Sequence record: SRR22947727_2929
DNA: 44,087 bases
Reading direction: 5' to 3' (one strand)
Shown: positions 18,006 to 27,957 of the stretch, piece by piece
Layout: each line of letters starts with the position of its first letter
How positions within the stretch are numbered: position 1 is the stretch's first letter
Translations under genes and position numbers: made by a program
The notes under the pieces: model-generated
Database searches by the model: none
What the model saw: only the letters and a program-made list of their open reading frames with translations
Told to the model about the DNA's origin: nothing

Positions 18006-19190
18006 ATGATGGCAACCGATATTGATGTTGTGGTCATCGGGGCAGGTGCGGCCGGTTTGATGTGTGCCAGCACCGCTGGCAAGCGTGGCCGGCGTGTCCT
18101 GCTGGTTGATCATGCAACAAAACTCGCCGAAAAGATTCGCATTTCAGGCGGTGGGCGGTGTAATTTCACTAATCTTTATACAGCACCAGAGGCGTTTTTG
18201 TCAGCCAACCCGCATTTCTGCAAATCGGCGCTTCGGCAATATGACCAGCATGATTTCATCGCGCTTGTTGACCGTCACAAAATTGCCTATCACGAAAAAA
18301 AGCTTGGACAGCTGTTCTGTGATGATTCGGCGCAAAAAATCATTGATATGCTGGTTCTTGAATGCCAACAGGCGGGTGTTGATCTACAAATGGGGCGCAA
18401 GATCGACAATGTTGACAAACGTGAAGACGGTTTTCAAATCACCCTTGATACAGGGGTTGTTCGGGCACAATCACTGGTGGTGGCAACCGGCGGCCTGTCG
18501 ATCCCGAAAATTGGCGCAACGGGTTTTGGCTATCAGCTTGCCAAACAATTCGGACTGCAGACTCTTGCGCAACGACCCGGCCTTGTGCCGCTGACATTTG
18601 ATCAAGATGTGCTGACAAGATGCAAATCCCTGTCCGGCCTGTCGGTTGAGGCTGAGGTTGGTTATCGGTCAACGGCTTTTGCCGAAGGGCTGTTATTCAC
18701 GCATCGCGGCCTAAGCGGCCCGTCAATTCTGCAAATTTCATCCTATTGGCAGGAGGCAATGCCGGTTTCGGTAAATTTGGCACCGCAGCATGACGCGGCG
18801 GCGCATCTTCTTGGTGGCAAGGCCAGACAGCCAAAGGCGGATGTGGCAAATTGCCTTGCTGATTTACTGCCAAAACGGCTGGCCGCGGAAATATGCGATC
18901 TTTTTGGCGTGGTTGGGCGGCTTGCCGACCGCAGCGACAAGCATCTTCGTCATTTGGGCAAGATGGTGAATGATTGGCAATTGATCCCGAACGGCACCGA
19001 AGGCTATCGCACCGCCGAAGTGACAATTGGCGGGGTTGATACAAATGGCCTGTCATCCAAGACGATGGAGGCCAAAACCGTGTCTGGCCTGTATTTCATT
19101 GGCGAGGTGGTTGATGTAACTGGCCATTTGGGTGGCTATAATTTCCAATGGGCGTGGTCATCGGGCTTTGTTGCCGGACAAAATGCCTAG
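18006..19190 (+). CDS. HI0933/YhiN family flavoprotein
   Basis: GAGAAG, KIRISGGGRCNFTN, LFTHRGLSGP, GGYNFQWAWSSG. Confidence 0.93.
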   Translation: MMATDIDVVVIGAGAAGLMCASTAGKRGRRVLLVDHATKLAEKIRISGGGRCNFTNLYTAPEAFLSANPHFCKSALRQYDQHDFIALVDRHKIAYHEKKLGQLFCDDSAQKIIDMLVLECQQAGVDLQMGRKIDNVDKREDGFQITLDTGVVRAQSLVVATGGLSIPKIGATGFGYQLAKQFGLQTLAQRPGLVPLTFDQDVLTRCKSLSGLSVEAEVGYRSTAFAEGLLFTHRGLSGPSILQISSYWQEAMPVSVNLAPQHDAAAHLLGGKARQPKADVANCLADLLPKRLAAEICDLFGVVGRLADRSDKHLRHLGKMVNDWQLIPNGTEGYRTAEVTIGGVDTNGLSSKTMEAKTVSGLYFIGEVVDVTGHLGGYNFQWAWSSGFVAGQNA

Positions 19191-19285: not shown

Positions 19286-19936
19286 CTATTCGACCGGCCG
19301 CCAATCGGCATACTCGGGGTCAAAATAGAGCAGGCTGCCATCGCCAATATCGTTCCAAAGTCCGTGAATTGACATGGTTTCGCCCTCGACGGCTTCGCGG
19401 ACAAAAGGAAAGCTCATCAGATTTTCCAACGACACCAGCACCCCTTCACGTTCAAGGGCGACAAGCTGTTCTTCGCGTGAGCCGAGATTCTTGACGCGTT
19501 CATAGCCGGGGCGAAGGATATCCATCCAGCGGCCAACGAAGCTAGAGGATTGTTCAAGTTCAGGCGCTGCACCCGAGCACATTTCATAACAGCCATTCAC
19601 CCCGCCGCAATTGGAATGGCCAAGAACGACAATATGCGCGACTTTAAGCGTTGTAACCGCATATTCAACCGCGGCTGAGGTGCCGTGATGGTCACCATCG
19701 GGCTGATAGGGTGGCACTAGATTGGCAATATTACGGTGGATGAAAAATTCACCTGTATCCGAGCCAAAAATTGCAGTGACATGAACGCGGCTATCACAAC
19801 AGGAAATCACCATGGCACGCGGATGCTGGCCCATATCGGCAAGATGCCGGAACCAGGCTTTATTTTCCTGAAATTTTGTCGCTTTCCAGCCAAGATAACG
19901 TTGTGCCAGATATGTGGGAAGTTGCGTTGCCGCCAT
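19286..19936 (-). CDS. Beta-class carbonic anhydrase
   Basis: SCCDSRV, HRNIANLVPP, GHSNCGG zinc ligands. Confidence 0.95.
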   Translation of the reverse strand: MAATQLPTYLAQRYLGWKATKFQENKAWFRHLADMGQHPRAMVISCCDSRVHVTAIFGSDTGEFFIHRNIANLVPPYQPDGDHHGTSAAVEYAVTTLKVAHIVVLGHSNCGGVNGCYEMCSGAAPELEQSSSFVGRWMDILRPGYERVKNLGSREEQLVALEREGVLVSLENLMSFPFVREAVEGETMSIHGLWNDIGDGSLLYFDPEYADWRPVE

Positions 19937-20051
19937 GTCAGTCTGCTCCGATCAGGTTTTGCCATTTGTCTGACAAAGATTGTCAAGCCTAGGCGGGAGA
20001 ATAACGGATCTGATCGCTGAAATCTAGTTTATTGCGGCATAACAGATTGTT

Positions 20052-20996
20052 TTACTGATCGATATCATCGCCATAGCGTGCGCCAAGTTCGGTGATGATA
20101 TTGTCCAGAAATTTGGCCGCTGCAACAGGTAGAACGCGTCCTTTTAGCTGGCCAATATGCAAAATACCGGCTGGCACGTCGGCAAGATCAACCGGTCTTG
20201 CCACTATCGCGCTGGTTTTTAAGGGGGCGGTGATCAGGTCGCTTGGCATGGCGATTGGAATTTGAAAGGAAATGACCATTTCATGGGTCAGATAATTTTG
20301 CAGAAATTCCTGACTGTTTGATTCGATTACCGTTCCAAGTTCGACACTGCGCCGGATCAGGCCAACATTGAGCAATTGCCGTAATCCGGCATCGGCACGC
20401 GGTAGAATGGCGGGTTGCCCAACGCAATCGCGAAGCCGAATCATCGGTTTTTTGGCCAAAGGGTGATTGGCTGACATCATACAGTAAAGCTGTTGACGGG
20501 CGGTGGCCATTGTCTGGAAATCAGCGCTTTTGATCGGTTCAAAAATCAAAGCCAGATCAGCCTCTAACGTGCGAAGCGCCTGTTCGGCTGCATCACCCGA
20601 TTGGCGAACCAGATCAAAAGTAACCGCCGGATGTTCGCCGCGATAGCGGGCAACGGTTTCAGGCAGAAAATAGCGCATCGTATCAGCGCCGCTGGCAATG
20701 CGGACATGGCCACGCCGGATTCCTGATAAATCGGCAATTTGCGATTGCACCCGCGCCAATTCGGCGGTTTGGGTGCGGATATGCTGGACAAATAATTCAC
20801 CCGCGGTGTTCAGCCTGACCCCCGATGCCAAACGTTCGAACAGGGGTTGGCCGATCTCATCTTCAATTTGCAAAATTCGCCGATTAAGCGCGGTTGAGGT
20901 GATGGCTAGCTTTTCGGCGGCTTTGCGAATTGATTTTTCGCGGGCAACCGCGTCGATAAAGCGTAATGACGTCATAAAGCGCATATCAAAAAACAT
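20052..20996 (-). CDS. LysR family transcriptional regulator
   Basis: SIRKAAEKLAITSTALNRRI HTH, LFER...GVRLNTAGE; ~310 aa. Confidence 0.95.
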   Translation of the reverse strand: MFFDMRFMTSLRFIDAVAREKSIRKAAEKLAITSTALNRRILQIEDEIGQPLFERLASGVRLNTAGELFVQHIRTQTAELARVQSQIADLSGIRRGHVRIASGADTMRYFLPETVARYRGEHPAVTFDLVRQSGDAAEQALRTLEADLALIFEPIKSADFQTMATARQQLYCMMSANHPLAKKPMIRLRDCVGQPAILPRADAGLRQLLNVGLIRRSVELGTVIESNSQEFLQNYLTHEMVISFQIPIAMPSDLITAPLKTSAIVARPVDLADVPAGILHIGQLKGRVLPVAAAKFLDNIITELGARYGDDIDQ

Positions 20997-21042
20997 CCCA
21001 AAAACTGGCTAAAACACAAGATTTATGAGGCCAGCTTAGCTA

Positions 21043-21082
21043 TGTGATGCAAAAAACGCATCACAATTATGCAAAACTAGCA
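21043..21082. promoter_or_regulatory. LysR operator pair: TGTGATGC-N7-GCATCACA plus a weaker ATGC-N7-GCA site
   Basis: Perfect 8-bp inverted repeat containing T-N11-A (21048-21060), and a second T-N11-A at 21070-21082, between divergent lysR and glnK. Confidence 0.75.
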
Positions 21083-21132
21083 GAATTTTTTTCATCAAAC
21101 AGCTGTTACCACTACGCCATCGGCTCATAACC

Positions 21133-21266
21133 GCGGGACTGACGGCGCCCTATTCCTCCAAAAGACCGTCACGAATTACCGCCCTAATATCGGCGACCCA
21201 GAACGGGGTTGACATCGGGCTTACTCAGGACGGCATCAAATATGCCGGACCGACGTCAAGGAAGGA
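21133..21266 (+). promoter_or_regulatory. Candidate structured 5' leader RNA of glnK-amt
   Basis: Four consecutive short stems and a TTCCTCC loop complementary to AGGA/AGGAA downstream. Confidence 0.45.
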
Positions 21267-21272
21267 CGAGAC

Positions 21273-21611
21273 ATGAAATATATAATCGCAATCATCCAGC
21301 CGGGAAAATTGACAGCGGTGCATGATGCGCTGCTGGAAATTGGCATCACCGGCATGACTGTAACCGAAGTGCAGGGCTATGGACGGCAAAAGGGCAAAAG
21401 CGAGATTTATCGCGGTGCCGAATACACAGTTCATTTCTTGCCAAAAGTCAAGATTGAGCTCGCCTTGCCGGCAAAAATGGCGGCAAAGGCGATTGATGTC
21501 ATCAAAACCGCCAGCTCAAGCGGCAAAATTGGCGATGGCAAGATTTTTACTTTCGATCTTCAGGAAGCGGTTCGGATTCGTACCAACGAAACTGGCGATA
21601 GCGCCCTTTAA
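21273..21611 (+). CDS. glnK: P-II family nitrogen regulator (divergent GlnK)
   Basis: GYGRQKG, YRGAEY (Y51), LPKVKIE, GKIGDGKIF, RIRT; 112 aa, adjacent to amt. Confidence 0.92.
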   Translation: MKYIIAIIQPGKLTAVHDALLEIGITGMTVTEVQGYGRQKGKSEIYRGAEYTVHFLPKVKIELALPAKMAAKAIDVIKTASSSGKIGDGKIFTFDLQEAVRIRTNETGDSAL

Positions 21612-21633
21612 AGGCATCACGTAGGAGTTACCA

Positions 21634-22953
21634 ATGATTAAAACAATTTTAAAATATTCGTGTCTTGCTGGCGCGGCTAGTTTGATGGCTAGTCCGGCTT
21701 TTGCGCAAGAGGCACCGGCGCATAGCGTTTTCATCCTGAACTCATTGCTGTTTTTGATGTCAGGGTTTTTGGTGATGTTCATGGCATGTGGCTTTTGCAT
21801 GCTTGAGGCCGGTCTTGTGCGGGCGAAAAACACAACAATGCAATTGACCAAAAATGTGGCGTTGTTCTCGCTGGCGGCAATTGGCTATTATCTTGTCGGT
21901 TATAATTTGATGTATCCGCTTGGGACATGGTCGGTTGAAGGCGTTTTGTCGGGTCTATTGCCAGTCGCTGCCGTTCTTGAGGCGGTTGGCGTGGCACCTG
22001 ATAAGGTCGATGATATCTCTTATGCGTCAACCGGATCAGATTTCTTCTTTCAGTTGATGTTCTGTGCGGCAACAGCTTCGATTGTATCGGGCGTGCTTGC
22101 CGAGCGTATAAAGCTATGGCCGTTTCTGCTTTTCACCTTTATCCTAACTGCGGTGATTTACCCGTTGCAGGCAAGCTGGAAATGGGGCGGTGGATTTCTT
22201 GACAGCATGGGCTTTCTTGATTTTGCCGGTTCAACGGTTGTCCATTCAGTCGGTGGTTGGGCGGCGCTTGCTGGCGTGTTGATCCTTGGCCCTAGAATTG
22301 GAAAATATAAAGACGGCCGTGTTGTGCCGATGCCTGGTGCGAATTTGCCGCTGGCAACACTTGGAACCTTCATTTTATGGATGGGCTGGTTTGGTTTTAA
22401 CGGCGGATCGCAATTGGCGATGGGAAGCATTGGCGATGTTGCTGATATCTCGCGTATCTTTGCCAATACGAATGCCGCTGCGGCTGGTGGTGCGCTTGTC
22501 GCGCTGGCACTGACCCAGATTTTCTATGGCAAGGTCGATTTGACAATGGTGTTGAACGGCGCGCTTGCAGGGCTTGTGTCGATTACAGCAGAACCGCTGA
22601 CCCCGACTTTGGGCGCAGCGACCTTAATTGGCGGCGTTGGCGGCGCGATCGTGGTCTTTGCGGTGCCGTTCCTCGACAAGATCAAAATTGACGATGTTGT
22701 CGGTGCCATTCCGGTTCACCTGATGGCCGGTATCTGGGGAACGCTTGCCGTGCCTTTGACCAATGGTGATGCCAGCTTTGTGACGCAGATAACTTCAATT
22801 CTCATTGTCGGAGTGTTCACCTTTGTGGTCTCATTAATTGTCTGGTTTGCCATTGATAAAATCATGGGTATTCGGGTCAGTGAGGAAGACGAGATTGCAG
22901 GTTTGGACAGTGCTGAACTTGGTATGGATGCCTATCCCGAGTTCTCACGCTAG
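21634..22953 (+). CDS. amt: Ammonium/methylammonium transporter (Amt family)
   Basis: Signal peptide; FFFQLMF, IVSGVLAER, DFAGSTVVH, WFGFNGGS, DDVVGAIPVH (twin His). Confidence 0.96.
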   Translation: MIKTILKYSCLAGAASLMASPAFAQEAPAHSVFILNSLLFLMSGFLVMFMACGFCMLEAGLVRAKNTTMQLTKNVALFSLAAIGYYLVGYNLMYPLGTWSVEGVLSGLLPVAAVLEAVGVAPDKVDDISYASTGSDFFFQLMFCAATASIVSGVLAERIKLWPFLLFTFILTAVIYPLQASWKWGGGFLDSMGFLDFAGSTVVHSVGGWAALAGVLILGPRIGKYKDGRVVPMPGANLPLATLGTFILWMGWFGFNGGSQLAMGSIGDVADISRIFANTNAAAAGGALVALALTQIFYGKVDLTMVLNGALAGLVSITAEPLTPTLGAATLIGGVGGAIVVFAVPFLDKIKIDDVVGAIPVHLMAGIWGTLAVPLTNGDASFVTQITSILIVGVFTFVVSLIVWFAIDKIMGIRVSEEDEIAGLDSAELGMDAYPEFSR

Positions 22954-22989
22954 ATAATTCGCAACGTCAAAGTTGCAGCAAAACAAATT

Positions 22990-23020
22990 TAGCCAGCGCC
23001 GGTTTTATCGGGGCTGGCTA
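22990..23020 (+). terminator. Hairpin after amt
   Basis: TAGCCAGC...GCTGGCTA stem; U-tract weak. Confidence 0.55.
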
Positions 23021-23179
23021 TTCATTAGGAAAAACAAGAACAATAAAATCTGAAAGAGCATTGTTTTTACTGAATTTTAGAAGCTTTACAGCAGCGGTTT
23101 TTTTCTCCTATTCTAGCATCTTATTATCCCCGATGATTTTTGTCGAAAAATAGCGGTGTGCAATAGAGCTGAGAGAGTA

Positions 23180-24757
23180 ATGTCGCAAACATTAAACGAA
23201 GGCCGTTCGAGCACCAAACCACTTTTTGAAGCTGTTGGCGTGACTAAGAGCTTTGGCGATTTCATCGCTAATGACGATGTGTCTTTTCGAATTCATGCTG
23301 GCGAAATTCACGCGCTTTTAGGTGAAAATGGCGCTGGCAAATCGACCTTTGTAAAAATTGCTTATGGGCTATTACAGCCTGATGCTGGCCAGCTATTTTG
23401 GAATGGCGAGCCAATTTCCATTCCCGGCCCCCAACAGGCACGCCAGCGCGGCATTGGCATGGTGTTTCAGCATTTTTCGCTGTTTGACGCATTGACCGTT
23501 GCCGAAAATATTCAATTGGCAATGCCTCCCGGTGAAACGATTGCGTCCCTATCGGATCGCATTGCCAGCATTTCAAAAGAATATGGTATCGAGGTTGATC
23601 CGGCGGCGCGTATTCACAATCTGTCCGTTGGTCAGCAGCAGCGTGTTGAGATTGTTCGCTGTTTGTTGCAAGACCCGAAATTGTTGATCATGGATGAGCC
23701 AACATCGGTTTTAACCCCGCAGGAAACCGAACAGCTTTTTGAAGTTCTTCGCCGGTTTGCTAAAAATGGGCTGGCGGTGTTGTTTATTTCGCACAAGCTG
23801 GATGAAATTCGGGCTTTGACAAGCCGTGCAACCGTATTACGGCGCGGACAGAATGTTGGCTCGGTAAATACCAAAGGCCAATCAAACCGCCAGCTTGCCG
23901 AATTGATGATTGGCACCAAAGTCAAGGATGTGGCGCGCCAAAAAGCACCAGCCAAAAGCAAAATATTATTTGCCGTGACCAAGTTAAACCGGCCAAAGCA
24001 AAATGCGTTTTCGGTGACGCTTCGCGATATTACGATTGAGGCGCGCGCCGGCGAAATTTTCGGGATCGCCGGGATCGCTGGTAACGGCCAAGATGAATTA
24101 ATGGCGGCGCTAACGGGTGAATGGCTTGGCAATCAATCGGGGGTCATCACGCTTGATGGCGGTGATATTTCATCGCAAGGGCCAGCCGAACGCCGCCTTG
24201 CGGGCATGGGATTTATTCCAGAAGAGCGCAATGGTCATGCGGCAGTGCCGTCAATGAGCCTCGCCGACAATGCGTTGCTAACCAATCATTCGCTTGCCGG
24301 TGTGGTGCGCGGTGGGGTGATTGATCTTGTCGGCATGCGCACCAAAGCTGCAGCGATTGCAGCGGATTTTGATGTTCGCCTTCCCGAGCCTAACCCGTTG
24401 GCATCATCCTTATCGGGTGGTAATTTGCAGAAATTTGTCGTTGGGCGCGAAATTATCAAAGTGCCGCGCGTGCTTATCGTATCGCAACCAACATGGGGTG
24501 TTGATATCGGGGCGGCGGTGTTTATCCGTGCGGCAATGCTTGATCTTGTGGCCAAAGGATCGGCAGTGGTAATGATATCGCAGGATCTCGAAGAAATTTT
24601 TGCGATTTCGCATCGCATTGCCGTATTGCATGATGGTGTTTTATCGACGGCTGAATCGGCCACAAAATTGACGGCTGAAAAGGTTGGGCTTCTAATGGGC
24701 GGCAGTGATGCCCCAAAAGATGCGGCACAAGGTGCAGTTCAAGGAGCAAGCGCATGA
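23180..24757 (+). CDS. ABC transporter ATP-binding protein (nucleoside/purine CUT2 type, two ABC domains)
   Basis: GENGAGKST, LSVGQQQR, DEPT, GIAGNGQ, LSGGNLQK, QPTWGVD. Confidence 0.95.
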   Translation: MSQTLNEGRSSTKPLFEAVGVTKSFGDFIANDDVSFRIHAGEIHALLGENGAGKSTFVKIAYGLLQPDAGQLFWNGEPISIPGPQQARQRGIGMVFQHFSLFDALTVAENIQLAMPPGETIASLSDRIASISKEYGIEVDPAARIHNLSVGQQQRVEIVRCLLQDPKLLIMDEPTSVLTPQETEQLFEVLRRFAKNGLAVLFISHKLDEIRALTSRATVLRRGQNVGSVNTKGQSNRQLAELMIGTKVKDVARQKAPAKSKILFAVTKLNRPKQNAFSVTLRDITIEARAGEIFGIAGIAGNGQDELMAALTGEWLGNQSGVITLDGGDISSQGPAERRLAGMGFIPEERNGHAAVPSMSLADNALLTNHSLAGVVRGGVIDLVGMRTKAAAIAADFDVRLPEPNPLASSLSGGNLQKFVVGREIIKVPRVLIVSQPTWGVDIGAAVFIRAAMLDLVAKGSAVVMISQDLEEIFAISHRIAVLHDGVLSTAESATKLTAEKVGLLMGGSDAPKDAAQGAVQGASA

Positions 24758-25854
24758 TCAGCATGACTCCGCGCAAACATATTCCGCTGTCGCTGACGCT
24801 ACTGACGCCAGCGGTTGCCATTGTCCTGACCTTGGCTGTTGGTGCCGGTATTTTTGGTCTTCTTGGCTTTAGCCCGCTTGGGTCACTTTATACTTTTTTT
24901 GTCGCGCCAATTTCGCGCCCTGATCAAATTGGTGACCTTTTTGTAAAGGCCTGTCCGCTGATCATTACTGCCACTGGGCTGGTATTTTGTTTTCGGGCGA
25001 ATGTGTGGAATATCGGCGCTGAAGGCCAGTTGGTTTTTGGCGCCATCTTTTCGGGTTGGGTGGCGCTGAGTTTTCCCGATTGGCCAGCAATAACCCTGAT
25101 GCCGGCAATGGTCTTGGCAAGCATTATTGGCGGCATATGCTGGGCGATGATACCGGCGTTATTAAAAGTCAGGTTTAACACTAATGAAATTTTGGTGTCG
25201 TTGATGCTGACTTATGTTGCGGCGCTGTTTATCGACTGGCTGGTGCGCGGCCCGTGGCGTGATCCGATGTCATTCGGGTTTCCGCTGACGAAAATGTATA
25301 GCGATGCTGGTCTGATCCACCGGATTGATGTGCCGTTTGTTGGCAGTTTGGGGCAATTGCACTGGGGGGTTGTTGGCGCGTTGCTATTGGCGATTGCTGG
25401 CAGTTTCGTGCTGTCGCGCACGATTTTAGGATTTCAGATCAAGGTCATGGGCGATGCGCCGCGAGCAGGCCGGTTTTCTGGCTTTAAGCCGCATCTGGTG
25501 ACGATTGGCGTTATGGCAATTGCTGGGGGTGCAGCCGGGCTTGCCGGAATGGTTGAAGTGTCTGCCAGCATGGGTCAGCTGCAGCCGAATGTGTCTTTTG
25601 GTTATGGGTTTACCGCCATCATTGTTGCATTTCTGGCGCGGTTAAACCCGATTGGGGTGATTTTTGCCGGCCTGATTGTCGCCCTTGCCGAACTTGGGGG
25701 TGATTATGCGCAGATCGCGCTTGGCATGCCAAAGGTGGTGACAGGTGTTTTCAAGGGGATCTTGCTGTTCATGCTGTTGGCAGGTGAGACATTTAACCGT
25801 TATCACATCACCTGGCGGCGTCCGGCCGTATTGCCGGTTTCAAAGGAGCGATAG
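24754..25854 (+). CDS. ABC transporter permease (nucleoside/purine type)
   Basis: WNIGAEGQ, NEILVSLML, YGFTAIIVAFLARLNP. Confidence 0.93.
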   Translation: MISMTPRKHIPLSLTLLTPAVAIVLTLAVGAGIFGLLGFSPLGSLYTFFVAPISRPDQIGDLFVKACPLIITATGLVFCFRANVWNIGAEGQLVFGAIFSGWVALSFPDWPAITLMPAMVLASIIGGICWAMIPALLKVRFNTNEILVSLMLTYVAALFIDWLVRGPWRDPMSFGFPLTKMYSDAGLIHRIDVPFVGSLGQLHWGVVGALLLAIAGSFVLSRTILGFQIKVMGDAPRAGRFSGFKPHLVTIGVMAIAGGAAGLAGMVEVSASMGQLQPNVSFGYGFTAIIVAFLARLNPIGVIFAGLIVALAELGGDYAQIALGMPKVVTGVFKGILLFMLLAGETFNRYHITWRRPAVLPVSKER

Positions 25855-25855
25855 A

Positions 25856-26767
25856 ATGGAAGCTTTGATCCTAACCGTTCTATTGACGTCGGTACCGTTG
25901 ATTTTTGCGGCAACGGGTGAATTGGTTGCTGAACGAAGCGGGGTGTTGAATTTGGGTGTTGAAGGCATGATGCTAATGGGGGCTGTGTCGGCCTTTGCGG
26001 CAACATCAATCCTTGGAAATCCTTATATGGGCATTCTGGCTGGTGCGGTTGCTGGGGCGATGACCGCGGCGGTGTTTTCGCTTTTTGCCTTGGGTCTTGC
26101 CACCAATCAGGTCGCAACAGGTCTTGCCCTAACCATTTTTGGATCAGGCTTGTCAGGACTTGTTGGCGCACCCTTTGTCGGCGGCACGGTTGATGGTTTG
26201 CCCAATCTTGCCATTCCGCTTCTTGCTGATATTCCGGTTATTGGCGATTTGCTGTTTAACCACGATATCATGGTCTATTTATCGATTGGCTTTCTTGTGT
26301 TTGTGGCGTGGTTTTTGAACCGGACGCGGGCCGGTTTGGTATTGCGGGCGGTTGGCAATAGCCACGATTCGGCGCATGCGCTTGGTTATCGGGTGCTTTT
26401 GGTGCGGTTTGGTGCGGTGTCATTTGGCGGTATGATGGCTGGACTTGGCGGGGCATATTTGCCGCTTGTGCTAACGCCACATTGGTCTGAGGGCATGACC
26501 GCGGGGCGCGGCTGGATTGCACTTGCGCTTGTGGTCTTTGCATCTTGGATTCCTTCGCGTATTCTTGTTGGCGCGTTATTATTCGGCGGAATTACAATTA
26601 TGCAGCTGGCCGGACAGGCGCGGGGATGGACCGTGCCGTCACAGATGCTGTCGATGCTGCCCTATATTGCGACAATCATTGTTTTGGTGGTGATTGCGCG
26701 TAATCGTGATTTCGCTTTGGCAAATTCCCCAGCCTGTTTGGGGCGTTTGTTTATCGGTAACAAATAG
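25856..26767 (+). CDS. ABC transporter permease (nucleoside/purine type)
   Basis: ERSGVLNLGVEG, NQVATG, AGRGWIALALV, MLPY. AAGGAG SD. Confidence 0.93.
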   Translation: MEALILTVLLTSVPLIFAATGELVAERSGVLNLGVEGMMLMGAVSAFAATSILGNPYMGILAGAVAGAMTAAVFSLFALGLATNQVATGLALTIFGSGLSGLVGAPFVGGTVDGLPNLAIPLLADIPVIGDLLFNHDIMVYLSIGFLVFVAWFLNRTRAGLVLRAVGNSHDSAHALGYRVLLVRFGAVSFGGMMAGLGGAYLPLVLTPHWSEGMTAGRGWIALALVVFASWIPSRILVGALLFGGITIMQLAGQARGWTVPSQMLSMLPYIATIIVLVVIARNRDFALANSPACLGRLFIGNK

Positions 26768-26826
26768 ATGTCATCAGGCATCAAATCTTTTATGGCATTA
26801 GGCATTTAATGTTTCAGGAGGAAACA

Positions 26827-27957
26827 ATGAAAACAAAAAATACCCTTTCATTTGGTGCAGTTGTTGCTGTTGCCAGCTTGGCCTTGTCGGCTTTGGTTGG
26901 TTTGACAACGGTGACTACGGCGAATGCAGCTGATAAAGTCAAGGTTGGCTTTGTCTATCTGACAACACCGGGTGACCATGGCTGGACTTATGCGCATGAA
27001 GTTGCTCGTCAGGATGTTGAAAAGCATTTTGGCGATAAGGTTGTAACAACCTTTGTTGAAAATGTTCCAGAGGGCCCTGACTCAGCACGCGTCATCCGCG
27101 AATTGGCAAAACAAGGAAATGAAATCATTTTCACCACCTCTTTTGGCTACATGGATCATACGATCAAGGTCGCTAAAGAATTTCCAAACGTGAAATTTGA
27201 GCATATAACTGGCTATAAGCGTTCTCCAAATGTGGCTACCGGTAATATCCGGTTTTACGAAGGCCGTTATGTCCAAGGTGTTGTTGCTGGTCTGATGACC
27301 AAATCAAACAAAATTGGTTATTTGGCATCTTTCCCAATCCCCGAGGTAATTCAGGGTATAAATGCATTTGGCATTGGTCTTCGCTCGGTGAACCCAAAGG
27401 CCGAAGTTTCAGTTATCTGGGTGAACTCTTGGTATGATCCGGTTAAAGAAGCTGATGCAGCTAAAGTTCATATTGCCGAAGGTGCGGACATTCTTGCTCA
27501 GCACACAGACAGCCCTGCTATGCTGCAGACTGCACAAAAAGCTGGTGTTCATGGCTTTGGCCAGTCAAGTGATATGAAAGCTTTTGCGCCAAAGGCACAA
27601 TTGTTTAGCTCTGTGAATAACTGGGGACCCTATTATATTTCAAAAATTCAACAGATGATGGATGGAAAATGGTCAACTGGCGAGGGCCCTGATCACTGGG
27701 CTGGTAACACGTGGGTTGGTATGGCAGATGATTATCTGGTGTTGTCACCGTTTGAGAACATGCCTTCGGATGTTGCCGCCGCTGCGGCCAAGGCTGCTGC
27801 CGATATCAAATCAGGCAAAAACAAGATCTTCACTGGTCCAATCAAAGACAATTCTGGCAAGATTCGTGTTCCTGCTGGCAAGACCTTGAATGACGGTGAG
27901 CTGTTCCAAACGCTTGATTATTACGTCGATGGTATTTCGGGCAAAATCCCGGGCTAA
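26827..27957 (+). CDS. BMP family ABC substrate-binding protein (purine/nucleoside-binding)
   Basis: Signal peptide; KVGFVY, DHGWTYAH, FTTSFGY, QHTDSPA. AGGAGG SD. Confidence 0.93.
   Translation: MKTKNTLSFGAVVAVASLALSALVGLTTVTTANAADKVKVGFVYLTTPGDHGWTYAHEVARQDVEKHFGDKVVTTFVENVPEGPDSARVIRELAKQGNEIIFTTSFGYMDHTIKVAKEFPNVKFEHITGYKRSPNVATGNIRFYEGRYVQGVVAGLMTKSNKIGYLASFPIPEVIQGINAFGIGLRSVNPKAEVSVIWVNSWYDPVKEADAAKVHIAEGADILAQHTDSPAMLQTAQKAGVHGFGQSSDMKAFAPKAQLFSSVNNWGPYYISKIQQMMDGKWSTGEGPDHWAGNTWVGMADDYLVLSPFENMPSDVAAAAAKAAADIKSGKNKIFTGPIKDNSGKIRVPAGKTLNDGELFQTLDYYVDGISGKIPG

Follow-up and report, generated by a model that had tools for sequence, protein, structure and literature searches.

A conserved leader motif as a candidate cis-regulatory RNA upstream of glnK-amt in SAR116 bacteria

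In this study, we describe a new candidate cis-regulatory RNA before glnK-amt, the genes for a GlnK-type P-II protein and an ammonium transporter (Amt), in a 44,087-nucleotide (nt) stretch of DNA from sequence record SRR22947727_2929 (hereafter the window, to which all positions refer). Judging from the sequence, the 134-nt interval 21133-21266 very probably lies within the 5' leader of the glnK-amt operon, which is divergent from a gene for a LysR-type regulator. The locus belongs to SAR116 (Candidatus Puniceispirillum), and the nearest genome (G001) shares 79% of the window's sampled words and has an identical intergenic region. SAR116 is an abundant heterotrophic clade of the surface ocean, where nitrogen often limits growth.

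The interval would make up most of a 5' leader of about 150 nt, and the operon would be under the control of a LysR-type activator box with an extended -10 promoter. A compact domain of about 40 nt close to the 5' end of this leader is built on a helix, P1, that joins 21141-46 to 21164 and 21166-70. We consider it likely that the structure is selectively maintained and functional as a cis-acting RNA. As a tentative best guess, we read the leader domain as an orphan riboswitch-like aptamer of a putative ligand. More tentative still is the specific proposal that P1, a short helix S1 and a hairpin P2 form the aptamer of an undescribed riboswitch class confined to SAR116 (Puniceispirillaceae), an H-type pseudoknot that would sense a nitrogen-status metabolite and tune the marine-type ammonium transporter and its P-II partner. 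On binding its ligand, for which a small nitrogen-status metabolite is the most plausible candidate, the pseudoknot would become more stable and change the production, survival or translation of the glnK-amt message. Our ranking of the explanations follows from a compact, conserved and probably pseudoknotted core with a variable peripheral hairpin, found once per genome and in one gene context.

A conserved helix and core near the 5' end of the leader

A covariance model, R1, was built from a hand-made, eye-chosen seed of 15 regions around P1 (stem 1 of the tiling discussed below) from five or six lineages. The comparison covers 54 distinct LysR-P-II/Amt intergenic regions from genomes and 80 metagenome loci, the latter taken from 471 LysR-gene relatives found by a metagenome scan; eight close relatives make up alignment A3. 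The parts of the motif in the window, all on the plus strand, are as follows.

21131-21180, plus strand: match to R1, the conserved leader motif (54.1 bits, E-value 3.8e-12, filters off, whole window)
21135-21137, plus strand: putative 5' strand of S1, GGG, in which G21136 and G21137 are the near-invariant GG (columns 6 and 7, G in 42/42 and 41/42 distinct sequences)
21141-21146, plus strand: 5' strand of P1 (S2 of the possible pseudoknot), GACGG and C21146; U21140-A21171 is one extra pair in this sequence
21148-21150, plus strand: putative 3' strand of S1, CCC, part of the conserved CGCC on the 5' side of the loop
21151-21163, plus strand: loop L3, with the variable tract UAUUCCUCC, in whose place other lineages have hairpin P2, and the conserved A-run AAAA (21160-63)
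21164-21170, plus strand: 3' strand of P1 (S2), consisting of G21164 (partner of C21146), the bulged A21165 and CCGUC, as placed by the alignments

The 5-base-pair (bp) core of P1 is paired in 74/75 cells of the 15 seed sequences (three compensatory pairs), in 94/95 cells of 19 distinct sequences and in 155/155 cells of 31 distinct metagenome sequences, 24 of them new. Over all 42 distinct sequences, 209/210 cells are paired and compensatory changes occur at four of the five pairs, counts that lean towards P1 because the alignments follow the P1 of the model; sliding the register by 1-3 columns leaves 30-49% paired. Members outside the seed that were found by R1 (L126, L130, L131 and metagenome loci) also form P1, with new pair types, and the C16:G40 pair is formed in 8/8 sequences of alignment A8. 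An earlier sequence-only reading of this DNA, which had proposed a riboswitch-like leader here, had set covariation among homologous leaders as a test, and P1 displays it.

Conservation extends to nucleotides outside the helix. A GG lies three bases 5' of P1, C-GCC stands at the 5' side of the loop, and 3-4 A followed by G stand at its 3' side; this G and the C of CGCC form a pair that in most cases is set off by a one-base bulge. Covarying helices and conserved unpaired nucleotides are thereby combined in what, by sequence comparison, is an aptamer-like core. Many lineages carry the hairpin P2 in the loop. In one subclade, 32/32 P2 cells are paired and two P2 pairs have changed at both positions; S1, P1 (6 bp) and P2 (4 bp) together are paired in 104/104 cells. 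Across lineages, 14 to about 45 nt separate the P1 arms. Furthermore, G-U pairs in P1 and in two flanking hairpins (P0 and stem 4, see below) occur only on the mRNA strand; since they would be C-A mismatches on the opposite strand, the structure is placed on the mRNA strand.

A possible H-type pseudoknot

The GG (21136-37) may pair with CC (21148-49), which in combination with P1 would yield an H-type pseudoknot. Columns 6:19 are GC in 41/42 sequences and GU in 1/42, and columns 7:18 are GC in 41/42, while pair 5:20 (G21135/C21150 in the window) is UA in 11, GU in 10, GC in 5, AU in 3, CG in 3 and unpaired in 10 of the 42. Taken together, columns 5-7/18-20 are 91.3% paired against 79.9 +/- 2.3 in shuffles, with a covariation score of 0.279 against 0.093, and 0/500 shuffles reach either value. 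These counts were not fitted to the model, as S1 is absent from R1. The layout would comprise a 3-bp S1, a first loop of 2-3 nt, a 6-bp S2, a one-base joint (G21147) and an A-rich third loop, which would end in the A-run 21160-63 and tolerate an inserted hairpin of 0 to about 35 nt.

Distribution of the motif

On the 44-kb window, R1 yields one strong match, the next reaching 16.3 bits (E 0.03). The motif is found in 20/56 related loci, always in the P-II leader, and in 47/80 metagenome loci, all at the same position relative to the LysR gene. Among 96 genomes of the family, 21 have a match at E<=0.01, of which 18 lie just upstream of a P-II gene and the three weakest elsewhere. The motif occurs once per genome and always in this leader, with the exception of G004, where the LysR-glnK locus is present on two contigs (C34 and C77; L003 and L027) that are 90-92% identical to the window, probably owing to strain heterogeneity within this metagenome-assembled genome (MAG). 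R1 was found in 0/90 genomes of three sister families, and 150 other genomes of the class gave no true match, the single match lying inside a coding region. Weak matches in L127-L129 and L133 were counted as false; they are away from P-II, with L128/L129 read as coding and L133 inside a response-regulator gene. An apparent resemblance of the motif (GGCGCCAU...ACUC...AAAG) to a Rhizobium-type region beside the same regulator box (see below) was rejected; R1 scores only 10.3 bits there (E 4). We read that stretch as promoter spacer, not RNA, because its spacing puts it between the box and a -10-like GGTTAC.

The leader matches no Rfam family, as the sequence-only reading had supposed: Rfam 15 gives no leader match at E<=10 on positions 20000-23000 of the window and none at E<=1 on eight related loci. 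We found no description of such a motif in the literature on SAR116/Puniceispirillum riboswitches, noncoding RNA or ammonium-transporter structured RNAs. The terms glnK, amtB, ammonium, Puniceispirillum, SAR116 and P-II are absent from the main texts of PMC11109978 and PMC8632094, whose supplementary motif lists might bear on this.

In sister genera (L025, L046, L049-L053, L055-L060; alignment A5), the glnK leader behind this promoter has another structure. Its two covarying hairpins are 85.6% and 95.6% paired, with double-sided changes at four and two pairs, respectively; a crossing helix CACCAC/GUGGUG is possible (79.5% paired), and an (A)AGAC tract stands before the second hairpin. In genus g10, the leader of L130 (1501-1650) has the motif followed by five AAGAC copies in an A-rich stretch up to the Shine-Dalgarno (SD) sequence; these copies may be a repeated recognition element.

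Regulator box, promoter and start

Two elements upstream of the motif would set where the leader begins.

21044-21087, plus strand: conserved regulator box, with the palindrome GTGATGC-N7-GCATCAC (21044-21064) containing TGCA-N6-GCAT (21048-21061), then ATGCAAAACTAGCAGAATT (21069-21087)
21104-21112, plus strand: extended -10-like element TGT-TACCAC; nearly all relatives keep its CTGnTA at one set distance from the box

The box is the most widely conserved intergenic part across families and occurs once in the window; its second half-site runs into TAGCAGAATT, up to 21087. It has the form of an LsrB-like site, with TGCA-N6-GCAT (T-N11-A type) upstream of -35/-10 and beside a divergent LysR gene, and binding by the LysR protein is predicted. 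From the end of the box to the conserved CTGnTA, the spacing is about 17-20 nt. A promoter consensus scan did not list the TGT-TACCAC site at 21104-21112. The account of the Sinorhizobium small RNA (sRNA) NfeR1 in PMC10746234 places an LsrB site TGCA-N6-GCAT at -72 to -60 of its promoter, ahead of sigma-70 hexamers. We infer a transcription start at about 21119 (+/- 3), since a box at -72 as in PnfeR1 gives 21120 and the spacing of the -10-like element agrees; the whole interval would thus be 5' leader. A leader peptide was considered and rejected, as no start codon with an SD lies in 21119-21240, and the ATG at 21242 is not in the glnK reading frame and is lacking in L006 and L007.

The box architecture also precedes orthologous LysR genes in Rhizobium, Sneathiella, Thalassobaculaceae, Burkholderiaceae MAGs and others. 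In L064-L110, a box of the form TGCA-N6-GCA[T/G] with an AAAAnTTAGCA[C/G]AAGACAG-like half-site precedes the LysR start (locus position 1501) by about 30-90 nt. The divergent target varies by group, being a Bmp/PnrA-type binding protein (L086, L099), an isochorismatase (L064) or, in SAR116, glnK-amt (three non-SAR116 loci examined). No AbcR-type RNA was found within 1.5 kb of related LysR genes (52-57% identical) in eight loci, which gives no support for orthology of the window's LysR to LsrB/VtlR.

Two of four stems are supported by comparison

The remaining parts of the leader, again on the plus strand, are listed here.

21121-21133, plus strand: 5'-terminal leader hairpin P0, CGG-CUCAUAA-CCG (RNAalifold consensus of eight relatives)
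21181-21226, plus strand: variable central spacer with stems 2 and 3 (identity to L004-L007 of 22/51, 24/52, 16/52 and 16/52)
21231-21247, plus strand: pre-SD hairpin CGGCAU-CAAAU-AUGCCG, or stem 4 (pairing in A3 and changes on both sides)
21259-21275, plus strand: SD sequence AGGAAGGA (21259-66) and glnK start codon ATG (21273-75); AAGGAAGGAC is invariant in A3

The sequence-only reading had tiled the leader with TGACGG (21140-45)/CCGTCA (21166-71), CGCC (21180-83)/GGCG (21192-95), ACCC (21196-99)/GGGT (21206-09) and CGGCAT (21231-36)/ATGCCG (21242-47), and had singled out TTCCTCC (21153-59), AGGA (21227-30) and AGGAA (21259-63) as possible partners. All of these strings are present at those positions, and the spacer is GC-richer than the sequence upstream, as it had noted (0.571 at 21119-21272 against 0.385 at 20997-21118). 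On A3, stem 1 (21141-45/21166-70) is 91.7% paired and stem 4 is 83.3% paired, the latter with pairs 123:140 and 126:137 changed on both sides (CG to UA in 2/8) and with G-U wobbles. Stems 2 and 3 are 59.4% and 62.5% paired, and their region is unalignable beyond the closest relatives. As aligned here, the comparative data support exactly the two 6-bp stems, 1 and 4, and leave stems 2 and 3 unsupported.

Counted within this one sequence, the tiling does not exceed chance. The 134-nt interval has eight perfect stems (at least 4 bp, loops of 3-25 nt) against 7.9 +/- 2.8 in mononucleotide shuffles, a count attained in 54% of them. The two 6-bp stems alone depart somewhat from expectation (two seen against 0.47 expected, with 8% of shuffles reaching two). 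The proposed tiling thus stands for stems 1 and 4, which covary, and falls for stems 2 and 3, which are not conserved, and for stem number.

The central spacer is 31-46% identical to L004-L007, against 49-63% at 4-fold sites of glnK and 69-88% in the P0-P1 block. By this comparison, the P0-P1 block is under purifying selection, because the spacer next to it and the glnK synonymous sites have come close to saturation. The P0 helix itself is neither supported nor opposed, as its three pairs are invariant.

Genes of the locus and their neighbours

The genes on either side of the intergenic region are the following.

20052-20996, minus strand: LysR-type transcriptional regulator, 314 amino acids (Pfam HTH_1, E 2.9e-15; LysR_substrate, E 1.1e-27)
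21273-21611, plus strand: P-II (GlnK-type) gene, 112 amino acids (Pfam P-II, E 1.3e-25)
21634-22953, plus strand: ammonium transporter, marine subtype (Pfam Ammonium_transp, E 5.7e-102; TIGR03644, 633 bits against a cut-off of 514)

NCBIfam P-II models score 140 bits on the glnK product, below the equivalog cut-offs, and no specific NCBIfam model reaches its cut-off on the LysR protein. The LysR gene is divergent from glnK, and the LysR-PII-Amt synteny is kept in relatives. P-II and Amt are the only members of the operon, which encodes no RNA-binding protein.

Upstream in the window are an HI0933-like flavoprotein (18006-19190, plus strand) and a beta-class carbonic anhydrase (19286-19936, minus strand), and a terminator-like hairpin lies 3' of amt at about 22992-23020. 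Positions 23156-27957 hold a Bmp-type ABC transporter operon, consisting of a two-ABC-domain ATPase, two BPD_transp_2 permeases and a Bmp binding protein (26809-27957). That this operon comes after amt suggests that glnK-amt was inserted between the LysR gene and the ancestral transporter operon of that regulator. Relatives G001, G009 and G012 have rpoN and two adjacent genes for sigma-54 activators, and by coordinates hfq lies about 2 kb from them; the clade therefore has NtrC-type machinery, though this glnK-amt copy has a LysR-type sigma-70 promoter.

Weighing the aptamer against other explanations

Several observations weigh against an aptamer. The seed of R1 was picked by eye. The pseudoknot idea was formed on the very sequences used for counting, the sole varying S1 pair is unpaired in 10/42 (always with A at column 20), and the shuffle controls overstate significance because the sequences are related. 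The window's own subclade is without P2; its loop of 13 nt is rich in pyrimidines and A, lacks G and contains the tract UAUUCCUCC. For the window sequence, the minimum free energy (MFE) over 21120-21290 is -40.8 kcal/mol against -44.5 +/- 4.0 in dinucleotide shuffles (z = +0.91), and 163/200 shuffles fold as well or better. The motif is missing from 36/56 related LysR-PII/Amt loci and 33/80 metagenome loci; since those carry other leaders, it is dispensable for the operon. The start position is read from sequence, and two RNA-library contigs bridge promoter and leader (20999-21415 and 20896-21413), giving no start, strand or level; they prove nothing on the start because the promoter is covered as well as the leader. 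Thirteen RNA-labelled sequencing runs contain the stretch, and the four inspected, from four studies, are all assembled contigs.

The output step adds to these points. The SD is unpaired in the consensus fold of eight relatives and lies 51-105 nt downstream in motif-bearing leaders, outside the pseudoknot. The duplex between loop and SD is no better than with shuffled loops in 18/18 lineages (lowest shuffle fraction 0.06); in the window it reaches -8.5 against -7.0 +/- 2.2 kcal/mol in shuffles (fraction 0.24), and on A3 it is 77.5% paired with no compensatory change. Alternative pairings of the P1 strands with downstream sequence are likewise at chance (2/38 tests <=0.05), and no terminator-like site is found on the plus strand of 20900-21700. 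Some relatives have a run of 5-6 U, 4-6 nt after P1, where the window has only UU. No conserved expression platform was found, which weakens the riboswitch claim without excluding it, because platforms vary between representatives. Given this lack, we propose that the output may act via Rho, an RNase or lineage-specific pairings.

A protein or sRNA partner would account just as well for a motif so narrowly distributed and tied to one gene context, and the domain might be a docking platform for a trans-acting macromolecule, either a dedicated RNA-binding protein or Hfq on the A-rich tract (AAAAGA, A-R-N-like), an explanation we hold to be somewhat unlikely. Within it, Hfq might act with a CCUCC-loop sRNA driven by the same box and complementary to the glnK SD. 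A simple hairpin-like motif tied to a single gene context is in many cases a protein site, hfq is present in 3/3 relatives, the conserved single-stranded run is A-rich, and AAGAC recurs five times in the L130 leader; AAAAG and CAAAA stand in 11/34 thinned leaders against about 3 expected, an exploratory count with mononucleotide shuffles that ignore relatedness. Moreover, G009 and G012 have a second box copy ahead of a strongly folding non-coding stretch whose two hairpin loops are UUUCCUCC and CUUCCUCCCCC and whose CCUUCCUC is, on a reading of the sequence, complementary to GAGGAAGG at the same genome's glnK SD. The stretch (L030:1500-1712 in G009; L028/L135 in G012) has an MFE of -54.6 kcal/mol (z = -3.86) and a terminator-like end, and looks like an anti-SD-type sRNA under the same regulator. 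However, BLAST finds it only in G009 and G012 among 41 genomes and does not detect it in G001 or in most of the genus, three other matching genomes covering the box only; it scores 30.1 and 24.1 bits with Rfam ar14 (RF02344) against a gathering threshold of 58.8, and unrelated control genomes also give sub-threshold matches. SD complementarity is generic, the 4-5-nt A-tract is short for Hfq, and the invariant GG/CC with a covarying flanking pair point to a folded core, not a linear site. CsrA, the other GGA-binding candidate, was rejected as the reader of several GGA motifs, its gene being absent in 3/3 genomes, and homology of the leader to the sRNA-like element of G009/G012 or to ar14 has no support. 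An explanation we regard as unlikely is a non-sensing structural leader, in which P0, P1 with the pseudoknot and the pre-SD hairpin would guard the message against 5'-end-dependent decay or set where it is processed. Helices that begin a few bases from the proposed 5' end, an unpaired SD and the lack of an expression platform would suit a structure kept for mRNA half-life or an open SD, and the different covarying hairpins of sister genera at the same place fit a generic need for structure. Such a leader has no need of some 12 unpaired or loop nucleotides (GG, CGCC, AAAG) that stay near-invariant through six genera as the stem sequences change, or of a fixed 3-nt spacing between GG and P1.

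The absence of any function, with shared descent and chance hairpins in a GC-rich spacer, is very unlikely in our judgement. It would accord with single-sequence statistics at chance, with membership in one family, with shuffle controls that ignore relatedness and with the many relatives that lack the motif, but a motif block so much better conserved than the near-saturated spacer and glnK synonymous sites beside it, and the compensatory pairing of P1 against its slid registers, speak otherwise. About as improbable is the switch of the sequence-only reading, in which UUCCUCC in the loop of stem 1 pairs with either AGGA (21227-30) or the SD. The centroid structure of the single sequence does contain loop-SD pairs, the tract resembles anti-SD loops of alphaproteobacterial sRNAs, and the pairing of loop and AGGA is 84.4% on the eight close relatives, with one compensatory cell at each of two pairs. 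Against this, the loop-SD duplex is at chance, as described above, the invariant CC and GG columns cannot discriminate between the rival partners, and the tract is confined to the window's subclade, other lineages having the small hairpin P2 there. What survives of that reading is a candidate cis-regulatory leader upstream of glnK-amt, carried by its conserved covarying structure; the anti-SD pairing of TTCCTCC and the translational switch built on it are not supported. Least probable of all is an element acting at the DNA level, such as a second-factor operator or a sigma-54 promoter, GG-N10-GC, at 21232-45 within stem 4. The spacing of CGGCAT-N5-ATGCC fits in the window, rpoN and several sigma-54 activators are present in 3/3 relatives, and GGCGCC is palindromic. 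The would-be -12 GC, though, is AU in 2/8 relatives with base pairing kept (pairs 125:138 and 126:137), for which reason a sigma-54 promoter at stem 4 was rejected, and the stricter pattern GGCAY-N6-TGCW misses the site. Furthermore, the P1 arms change sequence yet stay complementary at a variable distance, and G-U pairs are strand-specific.

Relation to known RNAs and significance

By analogy, the glnA RNA is the closest known counterpart in role. Like the glnA RNA (RF01739) and the Downstream-peptide motif (RF01704), the element proposed here would be a cis-regulatory RNA in 5' leaders of marine bacterial nitrogen genes; unlike them, it is matched by neither model at the thresholds given above (E<=10 on 20000-23000, E<=1 on eight related loci). 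The glnA RNA is a three-stem junction with an E-loop, an architecture that differs from that of our motif. According to PMC2864571, the glnA RNA, cyanobacterial and marine, stands before P-II and ammonium-transporter genes. The hosts differ as well, being cyanobacteria for the glnA RNA and SAR116 alphaproteobacteria for this motif.

Small H-type pseudoknot aptamers include preQ1-II, with a hairpin embedded in its third loop, SAM-II and SAM-V, preQ1-I and guanidine-III. The proposed layout resembles these in its short S1, first loop of 2-3 nt, joint of about 1 nt and A-rich third loop with an optional hairpin, as well as in its compact conserved core, variable periphery and probable 5' leader position. 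It differs in that the putative S1 has only 3 bp with a single variable pair and in that the SD lies outside the pseudoknot. SAM-II and SAM-V (RF00521 and RF01826), preQ1-I/II and guanidine-III are not among the Rfam matches of the window or the eight related loci. Protein-binding leader pseudoknots and hairpins, for example the autoregulatory leaders of ribosomal proteins, likewise combine a small conserved leader structure with a single operon and a narrow distribution. A difference is that no RNA-binding protein is encoded in this operon. LsrB-dependent promoters such as those of NfeR1/ar14 and AbcR1 share with this locus TGCA-N6-GCAT about 72 nt upstream of the proposed start and a sigma-70-type core, as PMC10746234 describes for PnfeR1. 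The CCUCC-type loop of the window's subclade also resembles the anti-SD loops of NfeR1/AbcR1-type sRNAs, but the transcript here would be an mRNA leader, and neither ar14 nor ar15 is matched at E<=10.

If ligand binding is borne out, the domain would count as a nitrogen-sensing RNA of a new type, with only one other kind known in front of P-II and amt genes, and as a compact RNA of about 40-70 nt with which to find the signal read by SAR116 bacteria. It would represent a second RNA solution to nitrogen sensing, unrelated to the cyanobacterial glutamine riboswitches and replaced in sister genera by other structured leaders. Even if the domain only docks a protein or an sRNA, a layer of control over ammonium uptake in this clade would follow transcription initiation, added to a LysR-type promoter that is common to nucleoside-type ABC transporters in other Proteobacteria.

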